A stretch of 64,000 bases of DNA, from positions 226 through 64,225 of the forward strand of contig PWKY01000066.1 of the NCBI GenBank assembly GCA_003560595.1. Reading direction: 5' to 3'. Source of the DNA: Thermoplasmata archaeon (GTDB lineage: Archaea > Thermoplasmatota > Thermoplasmata > Halarchaeoplasmatales > Halarchaeoplasmataceae). Below are positions 3,526-37,189 of the stretch, in pieces. Below the pieces are notes generated by a model, which made no database searches, was not told the DNA's origin, and saw only the letters and a list, made by a program, of their open reading frames with translations. The position numbers and the translations under genes were made by a program. Numbering within the stretch: position 1 is the first letter of the stretch; the number at the start of each line of letters is the position of its first letter.

Positions 3526-4191
3526 CTATTCAAACATATCCATCCAATCACGTCTTTCCCCATCTAATTCTTCAAAAAACAACAGATCCTCATGCTTCTT
3601 TATTCGAAAGATAGAAACCGCGTAATCGTATAATGTGATCTCCATACTGACTTTTCCTATATTTAGGTCATAATCACTCTTTAAATGCATAATTTCTTTT
3701 GCTTCATCTAAAGTTAAACCATAACTCTGCCACTTCATCATTTCCTTCTTTAACTCGATATCAGAATACAACTTATCTTCGATCTCTTCCGGGCTCATTT
3801 GTTCTAGGTCTTTTGAACTAATGATAGAGAGATGATGATCTAAAAGATCCAATTCCGGGTTTATACCCGTTTTTTTACCTAGATAATCAACTCTAGTCCT
3901 CAGCTCTAGCAGATAATCATATCTTGTTCTTAATTCGTATATCTTGTTATTCATCTCGTTGATAAAATCCTCGGAAAGAAAATCCTGGGCTTTTTCATTC
4001 ATTTCGAAAATCTCTTCGTCTTTACAGCCCCCATCGATCATCTCATTAATCTTGTCGCATATCTCAATTAGTCCCTCTTCTTTTTTTCCTAATACCTCGT
4101 TAACTCTCTCAAAGTCTTCAACAAACTTCTCGTGCAATTCTAATGCGTGATATAATGCTTTGATGTATTCCTCATGGTCGATATTCATCAA
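3526..4191 (-). CDS. Hypothetical acidic protein
   Basis: 221-aa ORF with consistent codon usage; no recognised motif. Confidence 0.4.
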   Translation of the reverse strand: MMNIDHEEYIKALYHALELHEKFVEDFERVNEVLGKKEEGLIEICDKINEMIDGGCKDEEIFEMNEKAQDFLSEDFINEMNNKIYELRTRYDYLLELRTRVDYLGKKTGINPELDLLDHHLSIISSKDLEQMSPEEIEDKLYSDIELKKEMMKWQSYGLTLDEAKEIMHLKSDYDLNIGKVSMEITLYDYAVSIFRIKKHEDLLFFEELDGERRDWMDMFE

Positions 4192-4351
4192 TTATACAAG
4201 AACTCGTACCTTGATATAATTTTCGTAACTGTTAATTCTAGTTTGTTTTTCTCCACAAAGATGTTAATACGGTGACCGTCAGAATTAAGAAATCTATAAA
4301 CATGAAAGAAAAGCTTATTTTTCTCATGAAAACTTACACCATCGTGATTTC

Positions 4352-4810
4352 ATGGTCAGTTTATACGGAGGAAAGATATATAGATACCATAATCGGCTCT
4401 ACCATATAGTGGACCGGAAAGAAGAGGAAGGTACGGTGAAGATATCTAAGATAACTAATCCCAAAACTAGTTTCTGGGTAGAAGAGTCGGAAGTGGAGTT
4501 CGTAAGCGATATGTTCGATGTACAGGGTGACAGTGAATTAGAAACGTGTTACGTTGCACTGGGGGTATACGGAAGATATACTCAGGAACTCGATTTCATA
4601 AGAACTTGTGGAAGATTACTGGAAGATTACGCAAATATGAAGAGGTTCGACGTAGGTGATTCTCGTAAAGAATTTATCGAACACCTGGCGGAAATGGACA
4701 TACTGATAGAACAGATGAAGATACTCTTTTCCTATGAAGAAGAGTGGGAACATATACGATCTCATAAATTATCTAACATTCGTTTTAATATCGAGGATAT
4801 GTTGAGATGA
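4352..4810 (+). CDS. Hypothetical protein
   Basis: 152-aa ORF; no recognised motif. Confidence 0.4.
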   Translation: MVSLYGGKIYRYHNRLYHIVDRKEEEGTVKISKITNPKTSFWVEESEVEFVSDMFDVQGDSELETCYVALGVYGRYTQELDFIRTCGRLLEDYANMKRFDVGDSRKEFIEHLAEMDILIEQMKILFSYEEEWEHIRSHKLSNIRFNIEDMLR

Positions 4811-5079
4811 AAACATCGATAGACGTACTCAAATTAGATCGTTAAATTCTTAGTTCTTCATCAGTGAATGGATCTATCAGATAACACGATCATCTATAGG
4901 AACTTATCCACGCCCGGTAACGATCTCGTAGTCTTAGAGTTTTTTAAACTTGACATTCTAGCGGCTGTAGATTCGGTTGGTATTCCTGTAATTGAAGCAG
5001 TTCGTACTTCATCAGGCTTATATCTATTCCTAATTGAGATCAGGTCGCTTTATTGATCAAGATCGACCTCACCCCGTTG

Positions 5080-5736
5080 TCATCCTAATGTACTCAAAAC
5101 TTCTTTGCAATCTTCGTCAGAGGTGATAGGGTCTATCACAGCTTTGATAAAACGCACGATCAGATCATCTAAAGTGCCGAATGCATCGACCATATCTAGC
5201 TCTGGATAGGTTTCCAGCAATCTATCGTTCTTTATGCTGACGACGGTATCTGCTATATCTTCCAGTTCGTTCAAAGCTTTCTCGGCTCTTTTTCCCGATT
5301 TTGCCCCTTCCACCTTGAACGGTAGAACACATATAGCGAAGATAAGAGCACAGTGTTCCCTAGCGATCTCTGCAACCATAGGGGCGGTAGCGGTACCGGT
5401 TGACCCGCCTAATCCGCTTACAAGGAACGTTATATCCGTTTTCTCCATGATCTCATCTATGGTATCCCTCTCTTCTTTATCTGCTCCCACTGATGAAAAG
5501 ATGAAACCACCAGTTGGATCTTTACATATCAAATATTTGTTCTCGATGGGAACAGTTTCTAAATGTGTAGAATCAACATCTATCGCGACCAATCCTACCC
5601 CGTGCATATCTACCTCGGTAGCCTTCCGGACTATGTTGCAACCAGTACCGCCAACACCGATGATATTCTTTCTCAGTTTCAAAGTGTTCAAAACCTCTTG
5701 CAACTCTGTTTCATCTTCCTTTGTTTCCATTCTCAT
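5080..5736 (-). CDS. FtsZ/tubulin-superfamily GTPase-domain-only protein (truncated FtsZ paralog lacking the C-terminal T7-loop domain)
   Basis: GVGGTGCN (glycine-rich T1 loop) and GLGGSTGTATAPMVAEIA (tubulin signature GGGTGSG variant) align with the FtsZ N-terminal domain. The protein ends at about 218 aa, before the NxDxxD T7 region. Confidence 0.65.
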   Translation of the reverse strand: MRMETKEDETELQEVLNTLKLRKNIIGVGGTGCNIVRKATEVDMHGVGLVAIDVDSTHLETVPIENKYLICKDPTGGFIFSSVGADKEERDTIDEIMEKTDITFLVSGLGGSTGTATAPMVAEIAREHCALIFAICVLPFKVEGAKSGKRAEKALNELEDIADTVVSIKNDRLLETYPELDMVDAFGTLDDLIVRFIKAVIDPITSDEDCKEVLSTLG

Positions 5737-5886
5737 TTCACTCCAAGACGTATATATTATTACGATATTTAAACTTACATATTGGCTTATAACTCATGCC
5801 GTTATCTTTATCTGATAAACTCAGGATGAATATGTTCTTTAATGTTTCAAATATGTGAGGGGATGATACATCGATACTACTTGTCG

Positions 5887-6567
5887 TCACTTAAAACACA
5901 CCTCTATTGCTTTTGTTTCCATCATTTCAATTACCTCCCTTAGATCTCCTTCAGAGTATCCCTCCAACCCCTCGGTATCGGGATCGATGTGGGGCGGCCG
6001 GCTTTCATAGTCCTGTAACACATACCTTTTAAACGGAGATATGGACCTCACCAACTCCAGTACATCCTCCGGGAATACCACGCCAGGTACCAGTGTGGTC
6101 CTGAACTCGTATTCGATACCGGACGATCTGATCAGCTCCATGGACTCCCGTATATCATCAGGATCCACATCCCCCATGAGGTGATACCTGTGGAAAGAGG
6201 TCTTCACGTCCATGGCCAGGTAGTCCACCGATCCACGTTCTATGATCTCCCTTAAAACATCGGGCCGGGTCCCGTTGGTGTCCAACTTGACTAGATATCC
6301 CATCTCCCTGATATCCCCGAGAAACTTCAGCAGATCTGGCTGTAGGGTCGGCTCACCACCGGTTACACACACCGCCTCTAGTCTGTCCTTACGTTCTTCA
6401 AGAAATCCCATTACGTGCTCTTCCGATATCAAAGGTACATCACCTCTCACAAGCCTCACGTTATAGCAGTAAGGGCAGCGGAGATTGCATCCCACGGTCC
6501 AGATTACGGCACAGAGGTGATCAGGATAATCAAGCAGCGACAGTTTCTGCAGCCCGCCTATCTTCAT
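5887..6567 (-). CDS. nrdG: Anaerobic ribonucleoside-triphosphate reductase activating protein (radical SAM)
   Basis: CNLRCPYCYN radical-SAM motif; start overlaps the nrdD stop (ATGA coupling); gene order nrdD-nrdG. Confidence 0.85.
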   Translation of the reverse strand: MKIGGLQKLSLLDYPDHLCAVIWTVGCNLRCPYCYNVRLVRGDVPLISEEHVMGFLEERKDRLEAVCVTGGEPTLQPDLLKFLGDIREMGYLVKLDTNGTRPDVLREIIERGSVDYLAMDVKTSFHRYHLMGDVDPDDIRESMELIRSSGIEYEFRTTLVPGVVFPEDVLELVRSISPFKRYVLQDYESRPPHIDPDTEGLEGYSEGDLREVIEMMETKAIEVCFK

Positions 6568-8678
6568 GCTTCCGCACTCACAGAACTTCTAAAGGTCTTG
6601 CGGTGCACGAACTCCTGACCCTTGCCTTCGTTCCACTGGTCCACAGGCCTGAGGTATCCCACCACCCGTGAGTAAACCTCGCACCGTACCTTCTGTCCAT
6701 ACTCCGCACAGCGTGGACAATGTCGATGTTCGCCTGAAATATACCCATGGTTGGTGCATATGCTGAAGGTGGGTGTTAGGGTAAAATACGGTATTGTATA
6801 ATTCTCGGCGATGGTGCGAACGAGCTTTTTGGTTGACTCTACAGACGGAAGCCTCTCGCCCAGGAACGCGTGGAACACCGTTCCACCCGTGTATTTCGAC
6901 TGTAAGGGTTCCTGCATATCTAGGGCTTCGAATAGATCGTCCGTGAACCCCACCGGGAGTTGAGTCGAGTTGGTGTAGTACGGTATGGATCCCTCGCCTG
7001 TGCTGAACCGTATTCCGGGATATCTTTTTACATCCGCCCTTGCCAATCGGTAGCTCGTGCTCTCGGCCGGCGTCGCCTCCAGGTTGTGCAGGTTCCCGGT
7101 TTCCTCCTGGAATTCCAACAGTCGTTCGTTCATGTGGTCCAGCACCCTCTCGGCAAAGGACACACCTTCATCCGTACATATATCAGTACCGAGAAGATTT
7201 AACATCGCCTCGTTCATACCGACTATACCGATAGTACAAAAATGATTTTTCCAGTATTCTCCGAACCTCTCACGAACATCGGAGAGATAGAATCGTGAGT
7301 ACGGATGCAGGTTACTGTGGGTCAGCTCTTCGATGACCTCTCTCTTTATGCTCAAACAGTCCCTGGCCTTCTCCATCAACTCGTCCAGCCGCTCAAAAAA
7401 CTCATCTTCACTTTTGGATAGGTGACCGATCCTGGGTAGATTCAGCGTTACCACACCGACTGAACCGGTCTTCGGGTTCGCACCGAAGAGTCCGCCGCCC
7501 CTTTTTCGCAGTTCCCGACTGTCCAGCCTCAGCCGGCAGCACATGCTACGTGCATCTTCAGGCTTCATATCGCTGTTCACGAAATTTGAAAAATACGGTA
7601 CCCCGTACTTCGCCGTCATCTCCCAGATCGGATCCAACTCGCCATTATCCCAGTCAAAATCTCCCGTTATGTTGTACGTGGGTATGGGGAACGTGAAGGG
7701 TCTATCCGCAGCATCTCCCTCCAGCATCACTTCGGAAAAGGCTCTGTTGATGGTGACCATCTCCTCCGCATGATCACCGTACGTGTCTTCTTTCATCTCC
7801 CCGCCTATCACCACACCCTGATCACTCATGTAATTCGGTGGCTCCAAATCCATGGTTATGTTGGTAAAAGGTGTCTGGAAACCCACTCTGGTTGGCACGT
7901 TCATGTTGAACAGGAACATCTGTATCTCCTGCTTTACCTGCTGGTAGTTCAAGTCGTCCGCCCTAACGAAGGGTGCCAGTAAGGTATCGAAATTGGATAC
8001 CGCCTGGGCACCGGCGGCTTCCCCCTGAAGAGTGTACAGGAAATTAACCACCTGCATCAAAGCAACACTGAAGTGCTTCGCAGGGCCGCTCTCTATCTTT
8101 CCCCTAGCACCCCGGAACCCTTTCACCAATATCTCCTCTAGATCCCACCCTACACAGTAGGGTCCCAGTGTTCCCAGATCGTGTATGTGGATGTCGCCTT
8201 CCATGTGCAGTTTACTTATCTCCGAGGGGTAGAGCTTGTTCAACCAGTAATTAGAAACCACCGTTTCGGTGGTATAAACGTTGAGCCCCTGTAGCGAGTA
8301 GCTCATGTTGCTGTTCTCCTTCACCTTCCAATCCATCATGTCTAGATAGTTATCCACCACCTCGATCTCCTTGAGCAGTCCGCCGACCTCACGTATGTCC
8401 TGGTGCTGTTTTCGGTACAGTATGTAGGCCTTGGCGGTCCTGTACTCTCCGGCCTCCATGAGTACTTTCTCTACAAGGTCCTGCACGCTCTCCACATCGG
8501 GTATCTCGCCCATCGGCGTGTTCGACTTGAGTATCTCCACCACCTTGTCGGTCAGTTCCACAGCCGTATTGAGGTCTTTGTCACCCACAGCCAAGGATGC
8601 TTTCCATATTGCATTCGTTATCCTTACCGGGTTGAAATCCACAACTTTCCCATCCCTTTTTCTTATCTTTCTTATCAT
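6564..8678 (-). CDS. nrdD: Anaerobic ribonucleoside-triphosphate reductase, class III
   Basis: 704-aa ORF. C-terminal zinc site CPRCAEYGQKVRCEVYSRVVGYLRPV with a glycyl-radical-type region; conserved RNR class III blocks. Confidence 0.85.
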   Translation of the reverse strand: MIRKIRKRDGKVVDFNPVRITNAIWKASLAVGDKDLNTAVELTDKVVEILKSNTPMGEIPDVESVQDLVEKVLMEAGEYRTAKAYILYRKQHQDIREVGGLLKEIEVVDNYLDMMDWKVKENSNMSYSLQGLNVYTTETVVSNYWLNKLYPSEISKLHMEGDIHIHDLGTLGPYCVGWDLEEILVKGFRGARGKIESGPAKHFSVALMQVVNFLYTLQGEAAGAQAVSNFDTLLAPFVRADDLNYQQVKQEIQMFLFNMNVPTRVGFQTPFTNITMDLEPPNYMSDQGVVIGGEMKEDTYGDHAEEMVTINRAFSEVMLEGDAADRPFTFPIPTYNITGDFDWDNGELDPIWEMTAKYGVPYFSNFVNSDMKPEDARSMCCRLRLDSRELRKRGGGLFGANPKTGSVGVVTLNLPRIGHLSKSEDEFFERLDELMEKARDCLSIKREVIEELTHSNLHPYSRFYLSDVRERFGEYWKNHFCTIGIVGMNEAMLNLLGTDICTDEGVSFAERVLDHMNERLLEFQEETGNLHNLEATPAESTSYRLARADVKRYPGIRFSTGEGSIPYYTNSTQLPVGFTDDLFEALDMQEPLQSKYTGGTVFHAFLGERLPSVESTKKLVRTIAENYTIPYFTLTPTFSICTNHGYISGEHRHCPRCAEYGQKVRCEVYSRVVGYLRPVDQWNEGKGQEFVHRKTFRSSVSAEA

Positions 8679-9133
8679 TTATTCTTCTCCTTCAATAGTT
8701 TCTCGAGTTCTTTTTCAAAACACGTTATGTCCGCAAAGCTCCTATACACAGAGGCGAAACGTATGTAAGCGACCTGATCCAGTTCCTTCAGACCTTCCAT
8801 GATCTTTTCTCCTATCTCCTCGGCCTCCACTTCTCTGCACCCACTTTTCCTTATATCCGTCTCTATACGATTGACCATCTCTTCTATCTTGTCCACAGAG
8901 ACCGGTCTTTTCTCACAGGCCTTCTCTATCCCCTTACGGACCTTTTTTCGGTCGTATAGCTCCCGGTGACCGTCCTTCTTGACCACGTATAGCTCCACGG
9001 GCTCGATATACTCGTATGTTGTGAACCGTTCGCCGCAGTTCAAGCACTCTCTCCTACGGCGAATGGTATCACGGGACGAATCACGGGAGTCGGTCACCTT
9101 CGTACCTTCGTTGTCACAGTATGGGCATCTCAT
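8675..9133 (-). CDS. nrdR: Transcriptional repressor NrdR (zinc ribbon + ATP-cone)
   Basis: MRCPYCDNEGTKVTDSRDSSRDTIRRRRECLNCGERFTTYE and AYIRFASVYRSF are near-identical to bacterial NrdR blocks. Start taken at MRCPYC (the ORF track begins 4 codons earlier). Confidence 0.85.
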   Translation of the reverse strand: MRCPYCDNEGTKVTDSRDSSRDTIRRRRECLNCGERFTTYEYIEPVELYVVKKDGHRELYDRKKVRKGIEKACEKRPVSVDKIEEMVNRIETDIRKSGCREVEAEEIGEKIMEGLKELDQVAYIRFASVYRSFADITCFEKELEKLLKEKNK

Positions 9134-9604
9134 CCAAACCACCATATATAGTATATTTAATTCTTATAACTACAATATGGTGTATTTATTTAACCTTTTC
9201 GCAGAATCTAACGATATTATCAGAAGGTTTAACATACATGTTACCTATCATCAATGCATGGACCCTGATATGAGACTTGTAAAATACATAGACAAGGCGA
9301 TCAACAGTGGTGGAAAAAAGATACCCGTACCTGCACGTCTACTCAAGGCAGCTAGTCCTGATGGTAGAGATGCAGCTTCAAAACTGTGTAAATTGAACAA
9401 AGTGGAGATGGTGGTCGTATCTGGATGATATAGAGCTATCTTATTTTCAGAAGATATATTTTATTTCTTAACTCACCAGACTTTATACCTAGCTTTTCGT
9501 TAGGATACACCCTTATCTCTATTCAATAACCCTTCATGATTTGAGATCACCGAATTTGAAGTGCGTTATGCTTAAATACTGTTCCGAACTAGAAACCGTG
9601 TATA

Positions 9605-10880: not shown

Positions 10881-13484
10881 CTATTTCATTTTTGATTCTA
10901 TATGATCGATGACCTGGTGTATCTCACACGGTTGCACAACGATCAGATCTCCTTCTTTTGCCATCTCAAATCCGGCTTCTATGGCTTCTATCTCATCGAT
11001 TATCACCGTTACGCGATCTTCCGATAAACCAGCTTCTAAAACACCTTGTTTTACCAACTCCGCAGTTTCTCCGATGTTACGATACCTGGGGTCTGCATCG
11101 TTTATGATCACACGGTCGTATATCTTCCCGATACCCCTTCCAAAGTCGATGATATCTTCCGTCGGGCGGTTCCCAGTTCCCGAACATATAGTTATCTTTT
11201 CATTATCTGTTAGCTCATCCAATATCTTTGATATAGCTTCGACAGCGGGTCTGTTGTGTCCGTAGTCTATCATGACTTTGATCTTACCAACATCCATTAT
11301 GTTCATCCTTCCAGGATTTTGGTTGGTAGATGACTGGAAGGTCAAAAGCCCGCTTTTGATAGATTCGATGTCTATATCAAGGGCAAAGCATGAGGCAACT
11401 GCGGCTAATGAGTTCTGCAAGTTGAAGGCAGCTTTACCCTTAAATGCTATGGGTATATTAGCCACCTCGACCACCTTCCAAACGCTCTCACCTTTCTTTA
11501 TAACTATCCTATCGTCATCGACGGTTACAACTATACCGCCTTCGGAAAGATGTTCTTTTACTTCATTCATATCTGGGTCTAGTGAAAATAGTATGGTGTC
11601 CGCGTGAACGATATCTTTGTATCTGAACACATTGGGGTCCTCAGCATTGAGCACGGCTTTACCTGAAGCTTTAACGGTTTCCACCACGATACCCTTGAGG
11701 CGAGCCATGTCCCTTATGGTATTGATGCGCCCCTCACCCATGTGGTCCTTTGTGACGTTCAGGAACACGCCCACATCGCTCTCGTAATATCCTAACCCCC
11801 TTCTTAATATACCTCCTCGTGCCACCTCTAACACCGCATGATCAACGGTCTTTTCTTTTAGAACAAATTTTGCCCCCTGTGGTCCGCTAAAATCCCCCTC
11901 TTTCAATAGATGATCGCCTCTAAACAAACCGTCAGTACATGCGACGCCTACGTTTTTACCACTCAACATCAAGATATGGGCTATCAATCTGACTGTGGTG
12001 GTTTTTCCGTTGGTCCCTGTCACTGCCACTATCGGCACTCTACTCTTTGCTCCTGGTGGAAAGAGCATATCTAACACATACTTGGCAACGTTCCTCCGCT
12101 TCCCCTCATATGGATCCAAATGCATCCGAAATCCAGGTGCTGCGTTCACCTCTATTACCCCTCCATCACCATGCTTTATCGGTTGTTTCATGTCCTGAAC
12201 GATCAGATCGATACCCATAACATCCAAACCGATTATATCGGCGATCCTTTCAGCTAACACCTTATTATTTGGATGTAACGAATCGGTCACATCGGTAGCG
12301 GTCCCCCCCGAGCTTAGATTTGCGGTTGATTTCAGTAACAACTCTTCTCCTTCGGGAAGAACTGTGTCTAAAGTATGGTTATTCTGTTTGAGGATCCTTT
12401 TTGTCATGTAATCTATTTCGATCTTAGTAAGTGTTTTCTCGTGACCTACCCCTCTTCTTGGGTCGCTGTTCAATACCTCTATCAGTTCTTTTATAGATGA
12501 TCTACCATCACCCCTTATGAATGGAGGATCTCTTCTAGCTGCAGCAACAAGCTCTCCATCTATCACCAGCATCCTGTGATCGGCTCCTTTCAAATATTCT
12601 TCGATGACTACATTGGGATCGATCTTTTTAGCTATCTTAAAAGCGAGTTTTAATTCCTCACTATCCTCCACCCTTGAGGAGATCCCTCGTCCATGGTTAC
12701 CTATATTCGGTTTTACAGCTACTGGATAACCTGATCTCTTTGCCATGCTTAAAGCCTCCTCTATAGTTTTGACCGTCCCCCCTCGGGGAACGGGTATGCC
12801 CGCTTCTTCAAGGATATCTTTCGTATTTTTCTTATCATCGGCGATCTCAACGGCGATGGCGGAAGTGTTCTCGGTCATACTGGCTTGCACCCTCTTTTGA
12901 TAAGAACCATGGCCCAGCTGGACGTAGCTGTGCTGGTTCAGCCTTATATAAGGTATACCCCTGCGGTATGCTTCACTTACTATGGATTTTGTAGTAGGCC
13001 CAAGCATATTCTGGTCCCGAAGGTACTTCAATTTTTTTAATACCTCTTCGATATCCGGTTCCTCCCCCTTCGTCAAGGCTTTAACTACTCTTACTGCTTC
13101 TTTACCTGCTTCGATGCCGGCGTCTTCATCTCTGTACCTGAAAGCTATTTCGTATATCCCATGTTGGTCAGTAGACATAGTTTTTCCGAAACCTACATCC
13201 ATGTTGGCTAGGCACTGCAGTTCTATGGCCACATGTTCAACTATATGTCCTAACCATGTACCCAATTCCACTCGTTCCAAGAAACCTCCTTCGTATCCCC
13301 GGCTACAGCGATGGGCTTTCAATGAGGGTAAGAGTGATTTCAAGCGTTCTACGAAGCCTGGTATCTCATCAGATGGTCTATCTTCGAATTCTTCGATATC
13401 TAAAAGCATGTATACCACCTGATATCGACTAAAGTAATTTGGCCCTCTGAGGGCTCTGATCTCTTGGATCTCTATGATTATCAC
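10881..13484 (-). CDS. cphA: Cyanophycin synthetase (ATP-grasp + Mur-ligase domains)
   Basis: 867 aa. N-terminal IQEIRALRGPNYFS and FLERVELGTWLGHIVEHVAIELQ, an ATP-grasp core, then the Mur-ligase P-loop AVTGTNGKTTTVRLIAHIL. Collinear with bacterial CphA. Confidence 0.85.
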   Translation of the reverse strand: MIIIEIQEIRALRGPNYFSRYQVVYMLLDIEEFEDRPSDEIPGFVERLKSLLPSLKAHRCSRGYEGGFLERVELGTWLGHIVEHVAIELQCLANMDVGFGKTMSTDQHGIYEIAFRYRDEDAGIEAGKEAVRVVKALTKGEEPDIEEVLKKLKYLRDQNMLGPTTKSIVSEAYRRGIPYIRLNQHSYVQLGHGSYQKRVQASMTENTSAIAVEIADDKKNTKDILEEAGIPVPRGGTVKTIEEALSMAKRSGYPVAVKPNIGNHGRGISSRVEDSEELKLAFKIAKKIDPNVVIEEYLKGADHRMLVIDGELVAAARRDPPFIRGDGRSSIKELIEVLNSDPRRGVGHEKTLTKIEIDYMTKRILKQNNHTLDTVLPEGEELLLKSTANLSSGGTATDVTDSLHPNNKVLAERIADIIGLDVMGIDLIVQDMKQPIKHGDGGVIEVNAAPGFRMHLDPYEGKRRNVAKYVLDMLFPPGAKSRVPIVAVTGTNGKTTTVRLIAHILMLSGKNVGVACTDGLFRGDHLLKEGDFSGPQGAKFVLKEKTVDHAVLEVARGGILRRGLGYYESDVGVFLNVTKDHMGEGRINTIRDMARLKGIVVETVKASGKAVLNAEDPNVFRYKDIVHADTILFSLDPDMNEVKEHLSEGGIVVTVDDDRIVIKKGESVWKVVEVANIPIAFKGKAAFNLQNSLAAVASCFALDIDIESIKSGLLTFQSSTNQNPGRMNIMDVGKIKVMIDYGHNRPAVEAISKILDELTDNEKITICSGTGNRPTEDIIDFGRGIGKIYDRVIINDADPRYRNIGETAELVKQGVLEAGLSEDRVTVIIDEIEAIEAGFEMAKEGDLIVVQPCEIHQVIDHIESKMK

Positions 13485-34677: not shown

Positions 34678-35814
34678 ATGGGATCCAATATGGAGTCTAT
34701 AATTAACAAAGCTTTGGATAAGCACAAAAAAGAAGAAGAAACCGGTGTGGAAAAAAAACGTATAGAAGAGTTAGAAGGTGCGCCGGAAGATGAAGAGCTT
34801 CGCAAGCTTTTGGAAACGATCGAAGTCAAGATCAGGATATTTGGTTGTGGAGGCGGCGGCTCAAATACCATCGACCGTCTGACACAAACCGGTATAACGG
34901 GTGCTGAATTGATCGCTTGTAATACTGATGCTAACCATCTCCTGCAGACTCATGCACAAAAAAAGGTTCTACTTGGAAAGAATAAAACAAGAGGACTGGG
35001 TGCAGGCGCTCGACCTGAGATAGGAGAGGAATCTGCAAGGGAGGCACAAGAACAACTTAAGAGATACGTTGACAATTCAGACATAGTGTTCATCACCGCC
35101 GGGATGGGCGGTGGTACTGGTACGGGTGCAGCTCCTGTGATCGCCCAGATGGCAGACGATGAAGGTGCCCTCACCATGGGTATCGTTACCATGCCTTTCC
35201 AAGCAGAAGGAAGAGAAAGGATGAGAAATGCTCAAAAAGGTCTAATGAAGATGGAGAGACATTGTGACACTACCGTCATAATACCCAACGATAAATTGCT
35301 AGACCTTGTTCCTAATTTACCCTTGGATGCTGCCTTTAAGGTGGCGGACGAGATATTGATGGAATCTATAAAGGGAATAACAGAGATAATCACAAAGCCC
35401 GGACTCGTCAACCTTGATTACAACGACGTTCGAACCATAATGGACGAAGGAGGACTAGCCATGATCGGGATCGGCGATTCCGACGATCCGAATACTCGAG
35501 TTGAAGATGCAGTATCTCAGGCATTAGGTTCACCATTACTGGGTGATATCGATGTCAGCGAATCAAAGGGCGCTTTGATACGTGTTACCGGCGGACCTGA
35601 CATGACCGTCACCGAGGCACAAAAAGCCGCGGACCTTGTCAACGAACGCATCTCCAAGGACGCAAGGATAATCTGGGGCTGTAACGTAGAAGAAGACCTA
35701 AAGAATACCATAAAGATACTACTGGTCATAACCAACGTGCACTCGGATACCGAAGAATTCGCCAAGATGTCCATGGGCGGTTCCTTGGACGGCGGCATCG
35801 ACATGGTTAATTGA
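34678..35814 (+). CDS. ftsZ: Cell division GTPase FtsZ (full length)
   Basis: GCGGGGSN, AGMGGGTGTGAAPVIA and the C-terminal T7-loop domain are all present. Confidence 0.9.
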   Translation: MGSNMESIINKALDKHKKEEETGVEKKRIEELEGAPEDEELRKLLETIEVKIRIFGCGGGGSNTIDRLTQTGITGAELIACNTDANHLLQTHAQKKVLLGKNKTRGLGAGARPEIGEESAREAQEQLKRYVDNSDIVFITAGMGGGTGTGAAPVIAQMADDEGALTMGIVTMPFQAEGRERMRNAQKGLMKMERHCDTTVIIPNDKLLDLVPNLPLDAAFKVADEILMESIKGITEIITKPGLVNLDYNDVRTIMDEGGLAMIGIGDSDDPNTRVEDAVSQALGSPLLGDIDVSESKGALIRVTGGPDMTVTEAQKAADLVNERISKDARIIWGCNVEEDLKNTIKILLVITNVHSDTEEFAKMSMGGSLDGGIDMVN

Positions 35815-35855: not shown

Positions 35856-36455
35856 ATGATAGCTAAAGGTGCAGGCAAGCCGCTGCTTTACATGATAATC
35901 CCATCGTTCATGTCATACGTTCTTTTCATCTTTATAGGATGTACTATCCTCTTTTTGTTGGGTACCCTTTTTTTAACATTACCGTTATTCACACTCTTTT
36001 TCTTCAGGGATCCTGAGAGGAACATAGGTGATGGTATCATATCACCTGCCGACGGTAGAGTGATAAACGTTACAGAAAGCTCTTTTGATGTATTCATGAG
36101 TGCTACCAACGTTCACGTTAACCGGAGTCCGGACTCCGGAAGGGTAGCAAAGATGGTTCATCGGTCAGGAACTCATCGACCGGCCTATTCAGATGATATA
36201 AGTGGTAACGAGAGGTTGACGACAACCCTGGAGACAGATGAGGGGTCTGTACGCATAACTCAGATAGCGGGTATCTTTGCAAGAAGGATCGTACCCTATG
36301 TTTCAGAGGGGGATGAGATAAAAAAGGGTGATAAGATCGGTATGATAAGGTTCGGTTCCCGGGTGAGGGTTGAACTCCCACCGACTGCAAAGATCACTAT
36401 TTCAAATGGTGTGATAGTAAGGGCCGGTGAAACAAAGGTGGGTGAATGGTCTTGA
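35856..36455 (+). CDS. psd: Phosphatidylserine (archaetidylserine) decarboxylase proenzyme
   Basis: PSD family blocks including the FGSR self-cleavage region. Confidence 0.8.
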   Translation: MIAKGAGKPLLYMIIPSFMSYVLFIFIGCTILFLLGTLFLTLPLFTLFFFRDPERNIGDGIISPADGRVINVTESSFDVFMSATNVHVNRSPDSGRVAKMVHRSGTHRPAYSDDISGNERLTTTLETDEGSVRITQIAGIFARRIVPYVSEGDEIKKGDKIGMIRFGSRVRVELPPTAKITISNGVIVRAGETKVGEWS

Positions 36456-37189
36456 CCGATAGCAGGAAATTGACCTTAGCGGATGCAGTTACACTGTTCA
36501 ATGGATTACTGGGTTTTCTAGCCATCACCTATATAGTTGATGGTAGATTCTTCGAGGCCTCGATACTCATATTATCATCCGTCGTGGTCGATGGTTTAGA
36601 TGGTATTATAGCCAGAGGTATGGGAACAACACACGAGGTTGGCGCATATCTTGACCTTTTTTCAGATTCGGTATCATTCTGCTTTGCACCGGCGTTGCTG
36701 ATATACTCCTTGTATTACGACAAAGAATTAGGACGTGCATGGATGTCACCGGTTAACGCCGCAGCCACAGTCATTCCTATGGTCATAGTGTTCTTCGGGG
36801 TGCTTCGCCTTTCCAGGTTTGCAGATAAAGAGAGTACCTCTGATTTTTACAACGGATTACCGGTACCAGTATTGGCTATGGTGATAGTGCTGCTCACAAA
36901 TCTACTAGGTGTCAACGGTAAGATCAATATTTCAATAGTTTTAAGCATCACTGTAGCCATCTCCCTGCTTTTATATTCAAGTATCAAGTATCCTAAATTA
37001 CGCCGCAGGGGATGGACCATAACTGGAGCCATGGTTTTATCGGCAGCCTTTTTAGGTATGATCTTAACGAAAAGTAGTTATGCCTTGGGCAGCATACTCC
37101 TTTTTGCTGCACTATCATCGTGCATATTGTATATAATAATAGGACCAATGGTGGTTGGATATGAAGAAAAATCCGGAAGAGATAGCTGA
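36446..37189 (+). CDS. CDP-alcohol phosphatidyltransferase (archaetidylserine synthase-like)
   Basis: DG..AR..G motif (VVDGLDGIIARGMG), polytopic; adjacent to psd. Confidence 0.8.
   Translation: MVLTDSRKLTLADAVTLFNGLLGFLAITYIVDGRFFEASILILSSVVVDGLDGIIARGMGTTHEVGAYLDLFSDSVSFCFAPALLIYSLYYDKELGRAWMSPVNAAATVIPMVIVFFGVLRLSRFADKESTSDFYNGLPVPVLAMVIVLLTNLLGVNGKINISIVLSITVAISLLLYSSIKYPKLRRRGWTITGAMVLSAAFLGMILTKSSYALGSILLFAALSSCILYIIIGPMVVGYEEKSGRDS

Follow-up and report, generated by a model that had tools for sequence, protein, structure and literature searches.

The 64,000 bp window analysed here extends from position 226 to 64,225 of contig PWKY01000066.1, part of assembly GCA_003560595.1 of a Thermoplasmata archaeon. 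Its minus strand encodes a protein of 218 amino acids, called sFtsZ in the following, which consists of the N-terminal nucleotide-binding domain of the division protein FtsZ alone. The open reading frame (ORF) is intact, and a second in-frame ATG at 5730 gives a form of 216 amino acids, which public protein sets already contain (P0001). A Pfam scan placed the Tubulin/FtsZ GTPase domain PF00091 on residues 25-177 (E 6.5e-27) and yielded no match to FtsZ_C (PF12327). The NCBIfam equivalog TIGR00065 (ftsZ) aligned over model positions 4-209 of 353 with 157.8 bits. This is under the cut-off of 295.2 bits because half of the model is missing. The window also encodes a full-length FtsZ with Tubulin and FtsZ_C domains, as the initial annotation had pointed out. 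BLASTP aligned residues 3-205 of sFtsZ to this protein with 32% identity. The alignment ends at ...DPIT, where the full-length protein runs on into KPGLVNLDYNDV, the T7 loop. The C-terminus of sFtsZ is ...KEVLSTLG, 15 residues past H7, without any extension. It does not contain the GID motif; by contrast, the full-length protein of the window ends in ...GGIDMVN. The initial description, a paralog made up of the GTPase domain without the T7 loop and the C-terminal domain, was correct, and the motifs it had quoted, GVGGTGCN and GLGGSTGTATAP, are present in the protein.

The AlphaFold2 model, based on an alignment of 77 sequences, showed a confident Rossmann-like N-terminal domain with a mean predicted local distance difference test score of 83.7. 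Only the N-terminus and the T3 region had low confidence. H7 comprises residues 182-201 and is followed by a short additional helix of moderate confidence (208-216). Foldseek superimposed the model on FtsZ N-terminal domains with a TMq of ~0.75, covering about half of each target. The match to the FtsZ N-terminal domain is far beyond chance. As a paralog of archaeal FtsZ, sFtsZ is functional and specific to its lineage, and it is reduced to the N-terminal nucleotide-binding domain.

Had the gene been a 3'-truncated ftsZ pseudogene, as considered in the initial annotation, frameshifted remnants of the C-terminal domain were to be expected downstream. None were detected in any frame by tblastn with the C-terminal domains of three FtsZs. 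Searched against the whole window and all sFtsZ loci, these domains found nothing but weak matches inside the sFtsZ ORF itself. The stop codon of sFtsZ and the convergent gene (4352-4810) are separated by 270 bp with stops in all three frames, and neither the window nor any sFtsZ locus has a stand-alone FtsZ_C ORF. A search of 5.8 billion proteins retrieved six further sFtsZs with 85, 84, 67, 60, 56 and 47% identity and lengths of 207-219 amino acids. All seven family members share the same end-point, ~10-15 residues past H7. The pairwise ratio of nonsynonymous to synonymous substitution rates (dN/dS) is 0.22-0.41, at synonymous distances (dS) of up to ~2. The same genome pairs have values of 0.04-0.07 for nrdD and 0.1-0.23 for nrdG. 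sFtsZ is thus under purifying selection, which is weaker than that on nrdD or nrdG. The absence of C-terminal remnants, the shared end-point and the purifying selection together rule out a truncated pseudogene.

The family is small. A profile of the seven sequences, run against 1.84 billion representatives at 50% identity, recovered two sFtsZ clusters with 405 and 330 bits; below them, the scores fall to ordinary or fused FtsZs with at most 227 bits. The contigs originate from soda-lake and hypersaline metagenomes and from metagenome-assembled genomes (MAGs) labelled Thermoplasmata, and the family occurs in hypersaline and soda-lake Thermoplasmata only. In the literature, no paper was found on this family or on a linkage of ftsZ to nrd genes.

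The nearest full-length relatives of sFtsZ are the Thermoplasmata FtsZs P0008 (43%) and P0009 (42%). Their genes lie in the order ftsZ-secE-like-spt5/nusG-rpl11, and the proteins are 51% identical to the FtsZ of the window. The latter has close relatives labelled Candidatus Natronoplasma, Candidatus Saliniplasma or Thermoplasmata. Its gene is followed by those for phosphatidylserine decarboxylase and a CDP-alcohol phosphatidyltransferase (phosphatidylserine synthase) at 35856-37189 on the plus strand, a synteny kept in at least five related assemblies (L094-L099). The two genomic contexts of ftsZ indicate that the lineage has two types of full-length FtsZ in addition to sFtsZ. Coexistence within one organism was seen in MAG GCA_003553355.1, which holds both sFtsZ (L003) and an FtsZ of the window type (L097).

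A neighbour-joining tree, which included no labelled FtsZ2 reference, recovered sFtsZ as monophyletic with 100% bootstrap support on a long branch with unreliable attachment. The best solved relative in the PDB was Odinarchaeota FtsZ1 (9v7v, E 1e-31), and Methanocaldococcus jannaschii FtsZ1 reached E 9e-29. CetZ chains gave only E 4e-6 to 1e-4, against 1e-31 for FtsZ, and membership in CetZ was rejected. As to the placement among FtsZ families proposed in the initial annotation, sFtsZ is nearer to FtsZ than to CetZ by these E-values, and the tree does not place its branch reliably with either FtsZ1 or FtsZ2.

A comparison column by column of the seven family sequences with 96 full-length FtsZs revealed what has been kept. 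T1 (G-x-G-G-x-G-x-N) and the T4 core (G-G-x-T-G) are present in all seven, and so are T6 N-D and the Ala and Asp of H7, with the H7 Phe in six. Each position of T5 (P-F-x-x-E-G) is conserved in six or seven sequences, with single substitutions. The tubulin signature GGGTG[ST]G is canonical in a single member; the window reads GGSTGTA. T7 and everything beyond it are absent. Altogether, 48 alignment columns are invariant across the family, among them the family-specific residues D53, IExK 64-67, C136-V137, R195 and P203. Judged from these motifs, the contacts to guanine, ribose and the alpha- and beta-phosphates are probably preserved, and the residues for gamma-phosphate sensing and nucleotide-side hydrolysis probably not. 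Archaeal FtsZ (TIGR00065) has an N-terminal domain homologous to sFtsZ, sharing T1, the T4 core, T5, T6 and H7, but it has in addition T7, the C-terminal GTPase-activating domain, the linker and the GID peptide. All of these are missing in sFtsZ, in which T3 is also lost and T2 and H5 are altered.

The conserved position directly downstream of nrdR-nrdD-nrdG is the most informative feature of the gene and had not been recognised in the initial annotation (Table 1). The minus-strand order nrdR-nrdD-nrdG-sFtsZ occurs in the window, in L086 (84% orthologue), in L002 (60%) and in L003/4/5 (47%), three independent assemblies. The short contig L088 (56% orthologue) shows a partial nrdD, then nrdG and sFtsZ. 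In total, sFtsZ comes directly after nrdG in five of the six lineages with a readable upstream gene. The NrdD of the window is 88-94% identical at the amino acid level to the orthologues in L002, L003 and L086. The adjacency of nrdG and sFtsZ persists in the window, L086, L002, L088 and L003 in spite of broken surrounding synteny and genomes that are ~72% identical.

Table 1. Features of the sFtsZ locus and the full-length ftsZ gene (positions in the window).
Feature	Position	Strand	Description
Acidic protein	3526..4191	-	221 aa, highly acidic, helical, no family assignment; neighbour kept in L002 and L086
MazG-like NTP pyrophosphohydrolase	4352..4810	+	152 aa, convergent with sFtsZ; PHROG 2245, E 2.2e-6
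sFtsZ	5080..5736	-	218 aa, FtsZ N-terminal nucleotide-binding domain alone: T1 to H7 and short C-terminal helix
Shine-Dalgarno-like GGAGTGA	5738-5744	-	before the sFtsZ start codon
TATA-box-like element	5766..5773	-	TTTAAATA; ~25 bp upstream of Shine-Dalgarno-like GGAGTGA and ATG; candidate sFtsZ promoter
nrdG	5887..6567	-	anaerobic ribonucleotide reductase activase, radical SAM; Pfam Radical_SAM and Fer4_12; immediately upstream of sFtsZ
nrdD	6564..8678	-	anaerobic ribonucleoside-triphosphate reductase; orthologues in L002, L003 and L086 with ATP-cone and NRDD Pfam domains
nrdR	8675..9133	-	nrd transcriptional repressor; start MRCPYC at 9133; TIGR00244, 191.5 bits (cut-off 124.65)
nrd operon promoter	9139..9193	-	TATA-like TTAAATA (9187-9193), then two NrdR-box-like palindromes
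NrdR-box-like palindrome, first	9170-9185	-	ATACACCATATTGTAG
NrdR-box-like palindrome, second	9139-9154	-	ATACTATATATGGTGG
Full-length FtsZ	34678..35814	+	378 aa; T7 NLDYND; C-terminal GID motif; presumed sFtsZ target

The operon is likely controlled by its first gene product. The two NrdR-box-like palindromes lie between the TATA-like box and the nrdR start codon, with their starts 31 bp apart. Both blocks are preserved in each of the four loci covering the region, namely the window, L086, L002 and the distant L003. The second box is the sole match in the 64 kb window within three mismatches to the consensus ACACWATATATWGTGT, which reportedly goes back to work of Rodionov & Gelfand in 2005. 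The gap between nrdG and sFtsZ measures 9 bp in L003, 31 bp in L088 and ~150 bp in the window, L086 and L002. The block TTTAAATA is conserved in the window, L001, L090, L086, L089 and L002 and absent in L003 and L088. With gaps of 9-31 bp and no TATA block, sFtsZ in L003 and L088 must be co-transcribed with nrdG.

On the other side, the MazG-like neighbour is conserved in L002, L086 and L003. Its ORF had no Pfam match; it carries the E..E...E..D motif typical of MazG-like enzymes, and PHROG 2245 is a phage nucleoside triphosphate pyrophosphohydrolase family. A conserved membrane-associated partner, whose presence the initial annotation had suggested looking for, does not adjoin sFtsZ: the neighbours are nrdG, the MazG-like gene and the acidic protein of 221 amino acids. 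The spacer between sFtsZ and the MazG-like gene (4811-5079, 270 bp) is in blocks 79-100% identical to L086 and L090. A small coding ORF was rejected here, since substitutions show no codon-position bias and a 43-nt insertion in L090 breaks the ORF. A structured RNA was likewise rejected, with an RNA fold z-score of -0.8 and no Rfam match. In three other loci, a gene for an acidic protein of 60-63 amino acids (MDEYEKYS...EKGLRTFEEFKKD) directly follows sFtsZ (L003 8676-8864, L088 2021-2212, L089 1611-1793). Between these loci, this protein retains 77-80% identity, with far greater divergence of their sFtsZs.

The genes at this locus have different histories. The nrdRDG region of the window (5887-9193) has 90% nucleotide identity to L003 4622-7876 (dS ~0.4), and the MazG-like region (4264-4949) has 91% identity to L003 9200-9887 (dS 0.15). 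The sFtsZ genes between them are not alignable by blastn, and the proteins are 47% identical. In the housekeeping genes ftsZ, deoxyhypusine synthase, pyrI and psd, the two MAGs share only ~72% identity, and dS is saturated. The GC content at third codon positions is 0.59-0.64 for the nrd genes versus 0.43-0.47 for sFtsZ and ftsZ. As the nrd and MazG-like genes (dS 0.15-0.5) are far more alike than the housekeeping genes, both the operon and the MazG-like gene must have passed laterally between soda-lake Thermoplasmata in recent times. sFtsZ itself looks vertically inherited and fast-evolving. A hypervariable cassette between conserved flanks was considered and rejected, because the housekeeping divergence of ~72% shows that the flanks were exchanged, not that sFtsZ was replaced. 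The adjacency of nrdG and sFtsZ outlasted this exchange and the loss of the wider synteny, and its persistence speaks for a functional link.

The domain content suggests a function at the filament of the full-length FtsZ. High-resolution filament structures of SaFtsZ have four longitudinal contact regions, formed by the H6-H7 loop, T5, T3 and H1/H2 of the lower subunit and by H10, S9, H8 and T7 of the upper one (PMC8936486). The elements of the lower subunit are all located in the N-terminal domain, those of the upper subunit all in the C-terminal domain. sFtsZ has retained the elements of the nucleotide-side or top surface, namely H1, H2, T5, the H6-H7 loop and a remodelled T3, and is without the T7-side or bottom surface of T7, H8, S9 and H10. 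Because the N-terminal domain carries all lower-subunit elements, sFtsZ has a top face and no bottom face. Without a T7-side surface, it would be unable to activate GTP hydrolysis by a neighbour or to be extended on its bottom side. The structural study argues that filaments grow at the bottom end, where T7 is exposed and where new subunits attach by the GTP-bound top surface, and it reports FtsZ mutants in the bottom interface to be toxic cappers (PMC8936486). The GID motif is the SepF-binding site of archaeal FtsZ (PMC8178401); lacking this peptide, sFtsZ could presumably not be tethered to the membrane via SepF.

In the favoured interpretation, which takes up the idea of the initial annotation that the protein caps or poisons FtsZ filaments, sFtsZ would act as a bottom capper or a sequestering modulator of the full-length FtsZ. 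Its nucleotide face would dock on the T7 face of full-length FtsZ, either of free subunits or at the growing filament end. Docked sFtsZ would serve as a cap or sequestering agent and damp Z-ring assembly. Such a cap would probably turn over slowly and be poor at hydrolysis, because the residues that assist catalysis from the nucleotide side (the T3 Gly, the T2 Gln and the H5 Arg) are lost. A tentative probability of about 0.35 is assigned to this function.

Several observations weigh against it. In all seven sFtsZs the T2 Asn is replaced by Asp, the next Thr is Val, Ala or Gln, and the T3 loop (G-L-G-A-G..P..G) is shortened and variable even within the family. The T2 Gln, equivalent to SaFtsZ Q48, is lost as well. 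The third Gly of the T4 motif GGGTGTG is exchanged for Ser, Lys or Glu in six of seven members, and the H5 Arg, equivalent to SaFtsZ R143, is lost in five and kept in two. Since the T3 loop, the T2 Asn and Gln and the H5 Arg are not conserved, GTP binding like that of FtsZ is not assured; these sequences suggest that both nucleotide binding and the canonical interface may be impaired. The missing T3 Gly, Gln and Arg may just as well reflect an interface that is no longer used, and it is this possibility that keeps the capping model at the probability given above. sFtsZ also evolves ~4-6 times faster than nrdD or FtsZ. The genomic link has weaknesses of its own: sFtsZ in L089 is preceded by a homologue of the 221-aa gene and not by nrdG, the separate candidate promoter of sFtsZ, with its TATA box, in the window and four other lineages has no recognisable NrdR box, and part of the linkage may be historical, the nrd genes having a history of lateral transfer that differs from that of sFtsZ.

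If the capping function applies, the dose of sFtsZ may be tied to the supply of deoxynucleoside triphosphates (dNTPs), and the protein would be a brake on division when deoxynucleotides run short. This tie is suggested by the position of sFtsZ at the end of the NrdR-controlled nrdR-nrdD-nrdG operon and next to a MazG-like gene. It also rests on co-transcription in two lineages, with an additional promoter of its own in others. In its most specific form, scarce dNTPs would de-repress nrdRDG-sFtsZ, and the half-FtsZ would block Z-ring growth until the precursors recover. Deduced from the gene position, this NrdR-set end-capper is doubtful. If true, it would amount in function to an archaeal counterpart of the SOS-SulA checkpoint, with FtsZ itself as the building material.

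To our knowledge, almost nothing is known in archaea about the timing or inhibition of FtsZ-based division or its coupling to DNA replication. sFtsZ is a candidate for an endogenous division inhibitor, and its place behind an NrdR-regulated ribonucleotide reductase operon provides a concrete, testable hypothesis for a connection of dNTP supply and division. A natural FtsZ half with the nucleotide face only would also be a ready-made test of the kinetic polarity of archaeal filaments, that is, of capping at the bottom end.

Known inhibitors offer partial parallels. The engineered fragment 1-195 of Escherichia coli FtsZ has the same domain content as sFtsZ. According to Osawa & Erickson in 2005, this fragment reportedly folds by itself and, when over-expressed, poisons Z rings. 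With an intact top face and no bottom face, sFtsZ is predicted to behave like this fragment and the bottom-interface capper mutants (Osawa & Erickson 2005; Redick et al. 2005; discussed in PMC8936486) and to cap the growing end in a dominant-negative manner. The E. coli constructs are laboratory-made and have wild-type pocket residues, whereas sFtsZ is natural and conserved and has a remodelled pocket. ARC3 of plant chloroplasts, with an FtsZ-like domain, a middle domain and MORN, is also FtsZ-derived and non-polymerising and inhibits Z-ring assembly directly. It demonstrates that direct inhibition of Z rings can arise by evolution in a domain derived from FtsZ. Unlike sFtsZ, ARC3 is eukaryotic, multidomain and regulated via MORN, PARC6 and ARC6, and beyond the FtsZ fold the two have no relationship at the sequence level. 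SulA, MciZ and MipZ have the capping or sequestering role on the longitudinal face of FtsZ that is proposed for sFtsZ, with unrelated folds. The induction of SulA by a DNA damage regulon has a parallel in the link to NrdR proposed here; for SulA and LexA this logic is established, whereas that of sFtsZ and NrdR is read from gene position alone.

Alternatively, sFtsZ may function away from FtsZ filaments as a guanine-nucleotide-binding sensor or regulatory subunit, for example together with NrdD/NrdG or the MazG-like enzyme. Enzymes of the nucleotide pool are encoded on both of its sides. The motifs for base, ribose and phosphate have been kept and the residues for the filament interface and catalysis (T3, Gln, Arg) lost, as would fit a sensor, and the invariant D53, IExK 64-67, C136-V137, R195 and P203 are not FtsZ interface residues. 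However, nearly all other nrdDG operons do without sFtsZ, which has only its two clusters among the 1.84 billion representatives, and in L089 the gene is apart from nrdG. We know of no precedent for a tubulin-fold protein as a partner of ribonucleotide reductase or MazG. On balance, a sensor is a possibility to be reckoned with, albeit an unlikely one.

The small acidic protein raises the question of a toxin-like or selfish module, in which sFtsZ poisons division and is checked by the 60-63 aa protein as in a toxin-antitoxin pair. Among 5.8 billion proteins, the search found only two clusters of the latter, each encoded immediately downstream of sFtsZ, and in L003, L088 and L089 it is better conserved (77-80%) than sFtsZ. 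The divergent core between highly similar flanks in the comparison of the window with L003 would also be in line with such a module. However, the window, L086, L090 and L002 lack the small gene, and the dS of sFtsZ fits vertical descent at the level of genome divergence, the flanks having been exchanged instead. PHROG and PADLOC contained no matches for sFtsZ, and viral relatives are lacking. An IMG/VR scan returned one weak partial match, and fold matches in BFVD were ordinary phage tubulins with 12-19% identity. On these results, a viral or defence origin was rejected, and a toxin-like module is improbable.

A decaying duplicate, in other words a truncated FtsZ copy under relaxed constraint and without function, would account for a dN/dS of 0.25 compared with 0.04-0.07 for nrdD, for the degenerated canonical glycines and T3 loop and for the very narrow taxonomic range. 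It does not agree with an intact ORF that has the same end-point in seven lineages separated by dS >1.7, a dN/dS well below 1, conserved Shine-Dalgarno and TATA elements, 48 invariant columns and the lack of C-terminal remnants. This makes decay very improbable.

The resemblance to FtsZl1 and related families implicated in membrane remodelling, proposed in the initial annotation, did not withstand the comparison. In FtsZl1 proteins, the FtsZ-like N-domain precedes a coiled coil and a C-terminal domain of alpha-helices, T6-H7 are not identifiable, and family-specific inserts occur between T1 and T4 (PMC2875224, Makarova & Koonin 2010). Their operons encode vWA-domain, GTPase, protein-kinase or OmpA proteins; FtsZl2 is proteobacterial and retains T7 and a C-terminal alpha/beta region of ~300 amino acids (PMC2875224). 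Like sFtsZ, both are divergent paralogs of the FtsZ superfamily that coexist with canonical FtsZ. sFtsZ is not an FtsZl1: it has 218 amino acids without a coiled coil or extension, its T6 N-D and H7 A-F...D align unambiguously, and it has no vWA or membrane partner among its neighbours. Nor is it an FtsZl2, having no T7, no extension and an archaeal host. That sFtsZ belongs to FtsZl1/FtsZl2, or is one half of a split FtsZ paired with a separate C-terminal domain, hardly merits credence: the superficial absence of the FtsZ C-terminal domain is all that speaks for it, architecture, motifs and operon context contradict the former, and the lack of a stand-alone FtsZ_C ORF in the window or any sFtsZ locus contradicts the latter.

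The profile search also retrieved other short and apparently complete FtsZ ORFs with the N-terminal domain only, in unrelated contexts and organisms (P0257, P0259, P0230/P0200). P0257 is a complete ORF of 240 amino acids (L100, 1037-1759) with 44% identity to a Thermoplasmata FtsZ. Its contig has a GC content of 56%, and a membrane-anchored protein is encoded upstream. Loss of the FtsZ C-terminal domain may be recurrent and independent. These ORFs suggest a phenomenon that has been overlooked, since they resemble gene fragments.

Two further regions around the locus were recorded. Upstream in window coordinates, an AT-rich stretch (GC 0.35-0.39) that reaches to ~5000 holds two plus-strand ORFs. 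The first (54-959) encodes a HerA/FtsK-like P-loop ATPase with weak Pfam matches to HerA_C and DUF87 and matches to PADLOC HerA models, restricted to the C-terminal parts of the HerA/DUF87 models. It is followed by an ORF for a protein of 438 amino acids without matches (981-2297). Close to the nrd operon, the minus strand of this archaeal genome encodes a cyanophycin-synthetase-like protein with Cyanophycin_syn, ATP-grasp and Mur ligase domains (10881-13484).

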